Shown: positions 29,701-59,850 of the stretch, piece by piece | Layout: every line of letters begins with the position of its first letter | Numbering within the stretch: the stretch's first letter is position 1 | IMG/VR virus record: IMGVR_UViG_3300005805_000001 | Location: 1 to 64,000 of that record | From: a virus | Lineage: Duplodnaviria > Caudoviricetes | Length of the DNA stretch: 64,000 bases | Strand: one strand, 5' to 3' | Program-made: the position numbers and the translations under genes | The notes under the pieces: model-generated | Seen by the model: the letters and a program-made list of their open reading frames with translations, nothing else | Told to the model about the DNA's origin: nothing | Databases searched by the model: none

Positions 29701-32700
29701 AAGTGATCCTTTGAAGTATGATCTTGAAGCATTCAAGCGTGCACATGCCGACATGATGGACCTGTATGCAGGTGCGCAAAAACTCATGGAGAATGCAATT
29801 GCACGTCAATTGTCACCAGGTGAAACAAGGAGTCTTGTAGGTGTTAGCGTATCACAAGGTACGTATAATTTTGATGATGCCCCGTTGTCTGACTTCCTGA
29901 ATGAAAGCACGGTGAACAAACCATTCGTATTGAATGGTACACCTGTAATCATATCCACTTCGACTTTTGACGGTTCAGTGGAGTTTAGACCGGGAAAGGA
30001 AATCCTGCCTACCATGACTGTTGCATCAGTTCTTGATGCTGATGGTAATCCGGTGGTATTGGATGTCAATGGTGTTGGAGGATTGCGTGCTGAACTTCTT
30101 CCTGCATTGAATGCCTTGAGTCAAAGGGTTACACAGGCAAGGGTAGGTGAAAACATATACAACAAATACTGGATGATTGTGGAGGATCCACAAGGGACAG
30201 TAAAGATACCAGGTGTGGAAGGATCATTTGATTGGAGGCCTGTAAGTCCGAAATCAATGACTCCACAACAAGTTGATGAAATACTCAATAACCTAAGGGC
30301 TACTGCTGAAAAGCACGCTACATTAAAAGACGCCTCTGAAAAAGATAAAAACATGGCGGTATTGAGGAATATTTCAAACAAATTGTTCATAGCCGTTTCT
30401 TCGTTTGATGCCGTAAAATCCTTTAAGAACGTACAAATAGGATTCACATTGAGTCCTACAAATAAACTTACCTTGGAAGTTGACTTCAAGTTCAAGCCGG
30501 GTAATATGCCAAGAAATCAAGCCGAGACTGCAGATGTGAATCAAGGCAAGGTATACATGACCGTTCCTGATAATATACGCACTTCACAGGATTTAATAAA
30601 CTGGTTTAACCAGGAGTTGCAAAAAGATCAGACTCTTGTGTATAAACCCAGCATGGAGTCAAAGGGAACTGAAAGGGTTCCTTTTAGCATGAAAGGCAGG
30701 CTTGCTCCGATTACTCATACCAGCATGCGTATGAATTTCAGTTCAGGATCTGCAGAACAACGTCGAGGTATAAGGGCAATCAATCCTACGAATGTGTGGG
30801 ACAGTTTCTCTGTGAATGTAAGCAGGCTTAATCCAAGGGTGGATCAAAAGGTTGTAGTACAACCTGTAAGGACTGCCGCTGGTGCCGCAATGGCCCAGAT
30901 GGCAAGGACCTCTTCCACGCCACCTGTTACTGCCACACCGCAGACAGTCACACTTGCACCTGGACTTACATCAGGACAAGGTGAAGTCGCTCCTACAACT
31001 CCTGTTTCTACAGATATAATTACAGATAATATATATAATAATTTTGTAGATAAAAACATAGTTCCTGAAAATGTTTTAAACTTTATTGCAGATAAAGTAA
31101 TTAATAGATCTGCTTTATCACAAAAAGAGATTGCAATATTTAATGGAAAAACATCTGAAATAAATAAAATAATTAGAAATAAAGCCGCTTTAGGCGCTCC
31201 TACAACTCCTGCCGCTCCAGCAGCCATAATGACCATGGAACGTCTAAATCAGGTATGGGATGATATAAGGAACGGCAAACCTGTTGATTCATTTTTCAAT
31301 GAGTTTAAGGAAGGTTATGGCAGTAAGTATCTTTTTGTCGAAGACTTAAAGGACTGGTTTGAAAACAAGACCAACACAAAGGTTGCAGTCACCACGACTC
31401 CAGGACGCATAGCGCCTAATGCCGCTGCTGCCCCTACCACTACAACTACAATTGATGCAGAAAAAGCCAAGATTACATCTTCAGAGTTTACAGAGTTAAA
31501 AAGACTGGCTAAGTTTTTTTTAGAGAATCCTAAAGAACCTACTGTATCAGGAAGTGTTGTTACAAGATACCCAACTTTGTTTAAAACTGTTACTGATATA
31601 GAAAAAAGAAGACAGAAAGAATTAGAGGGAGAAAAATATTTTGTAAAAACTAATGCAGAAGGACTCAAAGCTGCTAAAGAATTTGTTGATAGAGTTAATG
31701 CTAAATATGATGCAGAACTAGATGCTTTAGGTGCTGCTCCTGCACAGGAACGTCCTTCACGTAGAAAATCCGCGGGAGGTGATGCGTTCACAGGTGCCAA
31801 CAGCATAGGTACTTATGATGAAGGTGAGGTTATTGACCGTGAGACGGCGATAGAAAACATCAAAGGACTTCTTCCTGAGTTCATAAGCATAGGTGAACTT
31901 CTTCCGACACTCGAGGCTTTGCGTGATGGAAGGATCACATTCGGTTCATTTTACAACAACATGGTGCGCCTGGCATCAAAGCTTGTGAAGGGACGTGAAT
32001 ACCACGAGGCGTTCCACGCCGTGTTCCGTACCATGTTCACCGATAAACAACTTGACGCACTTTACAAGGAAGCCAAGGCTTTGATGATAAGTGAGTTCAA
32101 GAAACAGGGAAAGACATTCGTACAAGCCTATGCTGAATGGAAAGAGGATCGTATAGATTATGAAAGTCTTCCTGAAAGCATAAAGAAAGACCTCTTCATA
32201 GAGGAGTGGATGGCTGACGAGTATCCCAAATGGAGGGAAGGCAAGTCAGTCGTGCCGAAGAAATCCACTACTCTATTGGGAAAGATATTCAATGCGATCA
32301 AAAGGTTTGCTGATTGGTTGACAGGCACGCCCACATTGGGAGAGGTCTTCCAATCCCTGGACGAAGGAAAGTTCAGCGGCGCAAAGAACCCTGTGATGAA
32401 CAGGTTCACAAGCGGTAAGATTGATACCATGGCAAGGTCCCAGATATACGTGGGTAACAGAATGGGAACCAACGGTATAACATACGCGTCATACCTTGAT
32501 CCTTCACTTGAGATGGTGCTTGTCAATACTATTGCAAGTAGGGTGATGGAGGCTCAAAAGACAAATCCTGAAGCTCCAGCAGATTATCTCATTGAGATGG
32601 AAATACTTAAATTGGGTGACAAGTTCAATGTGGATGATCCAATTTATAATCCTATCGCTGACAATCCATCATACAATGATGTGTTTGAAAAAGTTCAGGA

Positions 32701-59193: not shown

Positions 59194-59254
59194 ATGCACA
59201 TGAGGGACTCGAACCCCCTACTTTTCAGTGTTACCATGTTACAACCAATGTGCA
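59194..59254 (-). ncRNA. tRNA-like RNA with collapsed anticodon arm (pseudo-tRNA)
   Basis: - strand: acceptor TGCACAT/ATGTGCA, D arm around AACATGGTA, T arm GGGGG-TTCGAGT-CCCTC. Only ACT-GAAA-AGT lies between the D and T arms. No encoded CCA. Confidence 0.6.
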
Positions 59255-59261
59255 TTCCTTG

Positions 59262-59349
59262 TAGTCAGGACAGGATTCGAACCTATATATATCGTTCCTC
59301 TTTTCTATGTTTTCTTGAGACGATAGCCGTACCATTCAGCCACCTGACT
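59262..59349 (-). ncRNA. tRNA-like RNA with expanded 24-nt anticodon loop
   Basis: - strand: acceptor AGTCAGG/CCTGACT, D arm GCTG-AATGGTA-CGGC, anticodon stem ATCGT/ACGAT enclosing CTCAAGAAAACATAGAAAAGAGGA, 4-nt variable region, T arm ATAGG-TTCGAAT-CCTGT. No encoded CCA. Confidence 0.7.
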
Positions 59350-59398
59350 AATATTCTGTATTCTTTGCGGAGAATATGAGAAATAATCTCCGCATCAA

Positions 59399-59638
59399 TT
59401 AGCTATGTCTTTCAAACAAAGCTGATTCAATCGTGGCTATATCAAGCCATGATGGTCTTTTAGGAAGTTTGTTTCCGTCTTCATCGTAATAACTGATTAC
59501 CCTCCATCCTTGATTAATGGTATGTCCGGGATAATTATCAGTACCTTCATGATACTTGTCAGCTATTTCAACGTGTACAGTACACAATACATCATCTGGC
59601 CCGATGAACTCGAGCTCATATTCAAATATTTCTGTCAT
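59399..59638 (-). CDS. Hypothetical acidic protein
   Basis: 79-aa ORF coupled to the upstream gene. Confidence 0.6.
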   Translation of the reverse strand: MTEIFEYELEFIGPDDVLCTVHVEIADKYHEGTDNYPGHTINQGWRVISYYDEDGNKLPKRPSWLDIATIESALFERHS

Positions 59639-59850
59639 TACTTTGAGGATTTTGTTATGAAACCCATGAGGGTCTTGATGTCCTTTGCCTTTAGGATCTC
59701 AGTCCTAGGCTTTTCACCATTGAAATATGCTTCCTTGTCTTCACGCTTAAACGCACTCCATAACTGTGTGTGAGGATTGTAATGGAAGAGGTAATCGTAC
59801 AAAGGATTTGCTCCAGGATTGTTATCCATGTGTTTGTTTTTTAAGTTCAT
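59638..59850 (-). CDS. Hypothetical protein
   Basis: 70 aa with LYDYLFHYNPHTQLWSAFKR. The true start may be near 59829. Confidence 0.6.
   Translation of the reverse strand: MNLKNKHMDNNPGANPLYDYLFHYNPHTQLWSAFKREDKEAYFNGEKPRTEILKAKDIKTLMGFITKSSK

Follow-up and report, generated by a model that had tools for sequence, protein, structure and literature searches.

The window analyzed here is the first 64 kb (64,000 nucleotides, nt) of a phage genome in IMG/VR that is 87,331 bp long and bears direct terminal repeats. On its minus strand, an earlier reading of the letters alone (hereafter the original prediction) had noticed a cloverleaf at 59262-59349, shaped like a transfer RNA (tRNA) and enclosing a 24-nt loop at the place of the anticodon loop. 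This gene, which we call element 1, is the subject of the present analysis. The genes around it all lie on the same strand, with an open reading frame (ORF) of 92 amino acids (aa) downstream and a family A DNA polymerase gene ~450 nt downstream, and no promoter or terminator of its own was evident at the locus. Element 1 is the sole match to the Rfam tRNA model across the whole 87-kb genome, where the T-loop motif GGTTCRANYCC occurs twice, in element 1 and in a neighboring tRNA-like minihelix, element 2 (Table 1). The phage has no canonical decoding tRNA, yet it carries two tRNA look-alikes.

Element 1 has the body of a tRNA and no anticodon loop

ARAGORN reported positions 59261-59349 (minus strand) as 'tRNA-???', with the anticodon (caag) at position 33 and no assignable amino acid. 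The Rfam tRNA model (RF00005) spanned 59262-59349 on that strand from end to end with 50.9 bits (gathering score 29, E-value 5.7e-08 for the window) and placed a 20-nt insertion in the anticodon loop. The minimum-energy fold is a cloverleaf as well, and the observation behind the original prediction is confirmed. Taken by itself, the fold energy is ordinary (z -1.4); it is the covariance model and the covariation seen in relatives that support the structure of element 1, and not thermodynamics.

Several features of a decoding tRNA are present, namely a cloverleaf with a 7-bp acceptor stem, a D arm with G18G19, and a T arm with TTCRA. In the sequence, U8 and G9 lie between the acceptor and the D arm, and position 3-70 is a U-A pair. 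Element 1 lacks the 7-nt anticodon loop of such a tRNA, in which U33, the anticodon, and a purine at position 37 would be expected; instead, 24 nt (CTCAAG...GAGGA) separate the two halves, ATCGT and ACGAT, of the stem at the anticodon position. The original prediction of a tRNA look-alike holds, and this look-alike cannot decode. In the predicted fold, CTC pairs with GAG and lengthens the anticodon-position stem, a GA bulge interrupts it, and a 16-nt A-rich loop remains.

Table 1 Positions of element 1, its parts, and the neighboring structured features in the window.
Feature	Position	Strand	Description
Element 1	59262-59349	-	tRNA-Leu-shaped non-decoding RNA gene; 88 nt, A1 to A73; ARAGORN, Rfam tRNA model, cloverleaf fold, five-sequence covariation
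Element 1, acceptor stem 5' strand	59343-59349	-	AGTCAGG; 7 bp with 59263-59269 (CCTGACT); U(-1) at 59350
Element 1, D arm	59326-59340	-	GCTG-AATGGTA-CGGC, with A14, A15 and G18G19; diverged version of the family's Leu-type GGCGGAATTGGTAGACGC
Element 1, anticodon-position module	59291-59324	-	Outer 5-bp stem ATCGT/ACGAT, invariant CTC/GAG, 2-nt GA bulge, 16-nt A-rich loop (59301-59316)
Element 1, variable region	59287-59290	-	ATAT, 4 nt; final U positioned to pair with A15
Element 1, T arm	59270-59286	-	ATAGG-TTCGAAT-CCTGT; read from the sequence; two pairs covary in homologues
Element 1, acceptor 3' strand	59261-59269	-	CCTGACT, discriminator A73 (59262), and encoded C74 (59261); CCA not encoded
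Element 2	59194-59254	-	61-nt tRNA-like minihelix, 7 nt downstream of element 1; acceptor TGCACAT/ATGTGCA, D-like arm with GG, T arm GGGGG-TTCGAGT-CCCTC
Conserved hairpin	59367-59393	-	GCGGAGAT...ATTCTCCGC; between the stop of the upstream 79-aa ORF (59399) and element 1; present also in L001 and L003

The aberrant arm is conserved in four other phages

No homologue of element 1 was found in IMG/VR when the D arm of the window was used as the query. A looser pattern applied to metagenome contigs, together with the loop motif applied to IMG/VR, identified the same core in four other phages (metagenome contigs L262 and L263; IMG/VR contigs L265 and L296). The core shared by the five sequences consists of the outer stem, an invariant CTC, the loop AAKAAAAC....AAA, which is 16 nt long in all five, an invariant GAG-G, and the return strand. 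In the five-sequence alignment, 95% of the cells were paired, and double-sided changes were found at five pairs, three of the five outer pairs of the anticodon-position stem and two T-stem pairs. When the 3' partners were slid by one to three columns as a control, pairing fell to 34-51%. The variable region measures 6 nt (AATGAT or AATAAT) in three of the homologues and 4 nt in the window.

No conserved upstream motif or promoter was found among the five homologues, and the neighboring ORFs of the window have no homologue beside the other four. With a covarying stem and a loop kept in five unrelated contexts, the core of element 1 is under selection. The original prediction had argued against random decay, and the compensatory changes seen in the odd arm in four other phages bear this out.

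A large phage family shares the tRNA-Leu frame

An exact 22-mer of element 1, GGTTCGAATCCTGTCCTGACTA, covering the 3' half of the T arm, the acceptor strand, and A73, was used to scan IMG/VR. At least 120 uncultured phage contigs hold it, frequently in several copies each, with six copies in 3.4 kb of contig L013 among the matches listed. Elements were extracted as the span from the 22-mer to the nearest AGTCAGG. This gave, within the same matches, 129 distinct elements of 54-182 nt in total length, most of which begin with AGTCAGGTGGCGGAAT(T)GGTAGACGC and nearly all of which end with (T)ACAGGTTCGAATCCTGTCCTGACTA, while their middles are unrelated in sequence. Wherever a copy of the 22-mer has a 5' strand, this half starts with AGTCAGGTGGCGGAAT and bears a Leu-type D arm, and over all the elements collected the total length is 54-196 nt. 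A second scan, in which the D and T arms were fixed and the acceptor left free, returned 95 elements. An anticodon arm was found in none of these 95; about two thirds of them have AGTCAGG, and most of the others have different acceptors that still pair. Among all the elements collected, 259 of 447 contain the AGTCAGG 7-mer. Pooling 345 elements from the matches listed resulted in 281 core clusters, 238 of which are singletons, and in the small clusters the stems covary while the loop sequences are fixed. The conservation of everything except the decoding arm, which the original prediction had noted for a single gene, holds across hundreds of elements.

The discriminator base is A73 in 251 of 274 elements, G73 in 19, and U73 in 4. 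A U at position -1 is present in 118 of 148 family elements, compared to 162 of 230 canonical tRNAs of these phages, and a C follows N73 in 144 of the 148, then A or T and no CCA, as in the canonical tRNAs of these phages. The real tRNA-Leu genes found in the same loci have the same type of D arm on other acceptor stems (GCC...), and the AGTCAGG frame was not found on any canonical tRNA of these phages. Element 1 carries the exact 22-mer, AGTCAGG, A73, U(-1), and the C after N73, has no CCA, and holds a non-decoding structured insert, all of which fit the family; its core forms a type of its own, found besides in the four homologues. Its D arm, GGCTGAATGGTACGGC, resembles the family Leu type, GGCGGAAT(T)GGTAGACGC, in the positions of A14, A15, and G18G19, with a stem of 4 bp. 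In three homologues (L262, L263, and L296), no standard pair joins positions 13 and 22, so that their D stem has at most 3 bp, as in tRNA-Leu.

ARAGORN called 30 of 176 family elements as tRNAs, with scattered anticodons, and the Rfam scores of family genes range from 31 to 50 bits; both tools report them as weak or undetermined tRNAs. At the Rfam gathering thresholds, 20 element-rich loci (143 kb) gave only tRNA plus one transfer-messenger RNA (tmRNA), and no known RNA family was found in the cores. The family is described in none of the papers or catalogues searched, and looking up the frame sequence in the literature brought up no account of it either.

The frame had no match in 50,697 GenBank phages other than generic tRNA fragments. 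Among 185,579 species genomes, it was present on 18 contigs of metagenome-assembled genomes (MAGs) and in no isolate genome; about half of these contigs were Bacteroidota (Chitinophagia, Sediminibacterium, Flavobacterium, Saprospirales). From this distribution we conclude that the frame is carried by phages and was not copied from a host tRNA. By these comparisons, element 1 belongs to a very large family confined to phages. Three phages with more distantly related polymerases (L103, L239, and L078) have frame elements as well; these hold other cores and lie 1-4 kb upstream of the polymerase gene.

Some of the cores in L033, L024, L040, L026, L085, and L091 hold a second, nested T-arm-like hairpin (e.g., TTGGTTCGATCCCAA), and others have hairpin insertions in the D loop, which means that the chassis tolerates additions at several points. 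A full tmRNA (L064:553-939, minus strand; Rfam 68.8 bits) was also observed on a phage contig with a frame element.

Element 1 is gained, lost, and transferred as a unit

The contig L265 is 95.5% identical to the window over exactly 59261-59349, while its flanks have no counterpart anywhere in the window or elsewhere in the genome, at the DNA level or in translation. The sister phages L001 and L003 have polymerases 98-99% identical to that of the window, and their DNA is 85-95% identical across the matching blocks. In L003, a 93-95% identical relative, positions 59262-59360 are precisely absent and the flanks joined, and L001 has a different structured sequence of ~100 nt at this site. The upstream hairpin is kept in both sister phages and the whole of element 2 in L001. 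The original prediction would have been refuted by relatives with a normal tRNA or a randomly decayed one at this locus; the relatives either share the non-canonical hairpin, carry a different RNA, or lack any such element. In these comparisons, element 1 behaves as a discrete cassette that is gained, lost, and transferred.

The insert relative to L003 is bounded by an imperfect direct repeat, CAAAGAAT / CAAGGAAT (59351-59366 and 59254-59261, minus strand), of which L003 has a single copy, CAAGAAAT (L003:3525-3540). The repeat could be a target duplication or the scar of a deletion at microhomology; since its two copies differ and it extends in part into the conserved C-A-A trailer, we do not rely on a target-site duplication. 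Retroposition was considered and rejected, as the genome has no reverse transcriptase. A73 is followed by C and then AA rather than by CCA; this C is uninformative because it is common to all tRNAs of these phages.

In the sequence that replaces element 1 in L001 (L001:3560-3625), a motif GCAATGCGGGC...CTGCGGAGCAAGGTGACA comes before a CCG-GAAAGA-CGG hairpin. This motif recurs as a free-standing unit just upstream of a canonical tRNA (L195:738-800), where the hairpin covaries (CCAG/CTGG). It has no Rfam match.

A natural tRNA scaffold is the preferred explanation

We propose, with a probability of roughly 0.55, that element 1 is a non-decoding small RNA that uses a leucine-tRNA chassis to display a variable effector hairpin, in other words a natural 'tRNA scaffold'. 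This reading draws on engineered chimeras in which a structured RNA takes the place of the anticodon stem-loop and which are processed as tRNAs, protected from nucleases, and accumulate (PMC3401473). The absence of a conserved promoter in the five homologues and of an evident one here suggests excision from a longer transcript. Element 1 would be transcribed along with its neighbors and might then be released by RNase P, given the U at -1, and by the tRNA pathway for 3' ends, given the C after N73, with CCA added afterwards. Its upper body, in which the acceptor, A73, a D arm close to the Leu type, and the T arm form a tRNA elbow, could serve as a handle for the host tRNA machinery, and the product may accumulate as a stable L-shaped RNA by analogy with the engineered chimeras. 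The effector arm would then be an interrupted 8-bp stem capped by the conserved A-rich loop, which may bind a protein, either of the host or of the phage, or else an RNA rich in U. Charging with leucine by the host enzyme is also possible.

Several observations weigh against this explanation. The D stem of the window has 4 bp where the Leu type has 3 bp. The CTC/GAG segments are invariant in the five homologues. The original prediction had offered, as one of its two readings, a stem extended by CTC/GAG and closed by a purine-rich loop without an anticodon; the fold returned both this stem and the 16-nt A-rich loop, but as the inner helix never varies it stays a prediction, and the 24 nt may instead form an open loop. 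No antisense target was found in the window, where the complement of the loop matches 3 times, counting the locus itself, which does not exceed chance (2.1 expected). No ORF family near the elements recurs in more than 16 of the 138 loci analyzed (2,619 ORFs), the commonest being DUF932, terminase, a phosphoesterase, and T5orf172. Finally, enzymes that read shape, such as RNase P, do not explain the constant AGTCAGG acceptor; this fixed sequence may point to a sequence-specific partner, or the constant halves may act as recombination arms.

Comparison with known tRNA-like RNAs

The closest annotated relative, with the same architecture as element 1, is RNA1 of phage T5 (AY543070, misc_RNA 30501-30644), annotated as a 'tRNA-like stable RNA with unknown functions'. 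It has acceptor-like ends and a canonical T arm (GAAGG-TTCAACT-CCTTC), as element 1 does, and its D arm is of the Leu type (GCCGGAATTGGTAGACGG). It lies in the tRNA region of T5, and ~85 nt of unrelated sequence take the place of the anticodon and variable arms. It differs in its acceptor, which is of another sequence and has mismatches, and in a much larger core, and it had no detectable sequence similarity to the frame beyond the D arm. T5 infects E. coli and has a full tRNA set, whereas the phage of the window has no canonical tRNA.

At the end of its tRNA cluster, phage T4 encodes two RNAs, rnaC (species 1) and rnaD (species 2), which are annotated as small and stable and have no assigned function. 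The rnaC sequence closes with CCGGG-TTCGAAT-CCCGG, a canonical T arm; neither sequence showed a Leu-type D arm or a clean 7-bp acceptor. The likeness to element 1 is one of kind, short of demonstrated homology. The engineered tRNA scaffold of Ponchon and Dardel (PMC3401473) provides a working model, although it is an artificial construct that uses other tRNAs as its base (e.g., human tRNA-Lys).

Class II tRNA-Leu (RF00005) shares with element 1 the A73, U8, T loop, U-1, and C after N73, and the lack of an encoded CCA, and has a D arm of similar type. It differs by its 7-nt anticodon loop and long variable arm, and the AGTCAGG acceptor is never carried by a decoding tRNA-Leu of these phages. 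Other non-decoding mimics of the tRNA elbow include the tRNA-like domain of tmRNA, the bacterial Y-RNA-like YrlA, and mascRNA; in YrlA, the ends of the RNA are located in the Ro-binding stem and not in an acceptor stem. As candidates for element 1, these were rejected. ARAGORN finds no tmRNA in the window, and element 1 has a U-A pair at the position of the tRNA-Ala-like G3-U70; neither the tmRNA model nor a Y-RNA-like one was among the Rfam matches at E-values up to 10; and mascRNA gave a sub-threshold match only, to element 2 only.

Element 1 seems to stand among the barely known tRNA-like stable RNAs of phages, and the function we give it is an inference. It is set apart by a minimal single-hairpin core conserved in five phages, by its presence in a phage without a decoding tRNA, and by its clear gain, loss, and transfer as a discrete unit.

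Alternative explanations

The main rival of the natural scaffold, or its complement, is a charged tRNA mimic, which as a sole account is unlikely. In this case, leucylation would be the very purpose of the Leu chassis; the host leucyl-tRNA synthetase (LeuRS) would charge the RNA and EF-Tu would bind it, so that it acts on translation or on machinery that uses aminoacyl-tRNA; it could titrate LeuRS, avoid the sensing of uncharged tRNA, donate leucine, or carry the A-rich loop to the ribosome. The bacterial enzyme needs A73 and the D/T tertiary core, and deletion of the anticodon stem-loop causes only a 2.5-fold loss of affinity (PMC2377443). The identity set of bacterial LeuRS, namely A73 (in the 251 of 274 elements mentioned above), U8, A14, G18G19, and U48, is kept, which, together with the dispensable anticodon arm, makes leucylation plausible. 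The D arm is moreover of the Leu type throughout the family and of no other tRNA type. The loop itself resembles in composition the A-rich, G-poor mRNA leaders of this phage, in which only 4 of the 40 gene starts examined (40 long ORFs of the window) have a Shine-Dalgarno motif, a property that fits a Bacteroidota-type host. However, 23 members have G73 (19) or U73 (4), and in Aquifex a G73 lowered leucylation 143-fold (PMC2377443). The neighboring element 2, with U73 and no Leu-type D arm, does not support charging either, and the Leu type could be mere ancestral inheritance.

Rather unlikely is a decoy that soaks up the host defenses or toxins that cleave or modify tRNAs and so spares the real tRNA pool. 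The restriction to phages, the fast gain and loss between near-identical phages, and the horizontal spread would suit an arms-race gene, and enzymes that read the acceptor end and elbow could bind, as both are intact. Anticodon nucleases read the anticodon loop. As this loop is the missing and variable part, absent here and different in nearly every family member, a decoy for such nucleases is not favored. A decoy also has no need for hundreds of different structured cores with conserved loops, and clustering of the ORFs of the 138 loci linked no defense or counter-defense gene to the elements.

The shape could also be punctuation for RNA processing, with the RNase P and RNase Z cut sites separating the upstream transcript from the mRNA of the 92-aa ORF and the polymerase while the middle drifts. 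The position of element 1 between same-strand genes, without a promoter or terminator of its own and in tandem with a second tRNA-like unit, agrees with such a role, as do the lack of a shared upstream motif in the five homologues and the fact that the constant parts are only those that processing enzymes need. We hold it to be quite improbable given the selection acting on the core, whose stem covaries and whose 16-nt loop is kept in five unrelated contexts; other core types too keep their loops while the stems covary, and L003 has the same junction without element 1.

The other reading offered by the original prediction, a tRNA-Leu(CAA) with an intron, fared poorly. Removal of a 17-nt insert would leave the 7-nt loop CUCAAGN in a tRNA with a short variable arm that reads UUG, and the invariance in the five homologues of CUCAA on the 5' side of the insert and of G on its 3' side, the constant insert length, and the A73 and Leu-like body are what one might expect; a type I tRNA-Leu is known in Streptomyces (PMC6614811). 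Against it, there is no bulge-helix-bulge, only the 3-bp CTC/GAG, a 2-nt bulge, and a 16-nt unpaired loop without a second helix, and a group I intron would need far more than 17 nt. Searches of the 87-kb phage genome with PF01974, PF01139, and PF09414 gave no match (no RtcB, splicing endonuclease, or RNA ligase). If the junction lies at 37/38, the L263 homologue has a U at the would-be position 37. With 0 of 95 family members having an anticodon arm, and the phage lacking any other tRNA, element 1 is very probably not an intron-bearing tRNA.

A decaying tRNA pseudogene, or an attP-type remnant of integration into a tRNA gene, would agree with the lack of decoding and with the absence from a close relative, and is close to refuted by four intact and covarying helices, an aberrant arm conserved across phages, a full-length gene rather than a 3' half, and the absence of the sequence as a tRNA from bacterial isolate genomes.

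Implications for phage tRNA genes

Phage tRNA genes are usually ascribed to codon usage or to escape from tRNA-cleaving defenses. Here, a phage without a working tRNA keeps two look-alikes, one of which comes from a family with hundreds of middles on a constant frame. As Rfam and ARAGORN list such genes as weak or undetermined tRNAs, counts of phage tRNAs and the codon-usage arguments built on them are contaminated by non-decoding genes. If the frame is a carrier, phages had the tRNA-scaffold trick long before the laboratory, and the middles would offer a large and so far unused collection of small RNAs with functions such as binders, decoys, or regulators. T5 RNA1 offers a tractable E. coli model for their function.

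A bolder and rather doubtful extension is that a mobile, leucine-chargeable tRNA chassis serves as a plug-in platform, sending hundreds of RNA modules through RNase P, the CCA enzyme, LeuRS, EF-Tu, and perhaps the ribosome to targets in the host or in rival phages, the hosts probably being Bacteroidota and others. The loop of this member would then imitate the A-rich leaders of a host that does without Shine-Dalgarno motifs, and trap either an initiation factor or the small subunit of the ribosome. Such a platform, if true, would be a new class of phage effector RNAs and the natural counterpart of the laboratory tRNA scaffold.

Neighboring elements

Element 2 has a 7-bp acceptor with U1-A72 and U73, and only ACT-GAAA-AGT at the place of the anticodon arm. 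Its match to the Rfam mascRNA model was sub-threshold (18.5 bits, compared to a gathering threshold of 42.5). Its frame was found in IMG/VR, outside the genome of the window, only in a sister phage, so that it has no wide family like that of element 1. The identity to the L001 copy is 98%; in L003, the first 51 nt are kept, with GACA as the loop, and the copy breaks off in its 3' acceptor strand.

Two genes upstream of element 1, a 70-aa ORF (59638-59850, minus strand) with no Pfam domain has homologues, 40-50% identical, within a few kb of frame elements in L104, L079, L008, and L120, four loci that are unrelated to each other. The conserved hairpin of Table 1 is GC-rich and has no U-tract, its loop changes among L001 and L003, and no terminator was called at it in a consensus scan; it could act as a signal for RNA processing or stability. 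L001 has an additional 239 nt (L001:3243-3482) between this hairpin and the 79-aa gene, absent in the window and in L003, which end in a stop codon and form the tail of a small ORF.

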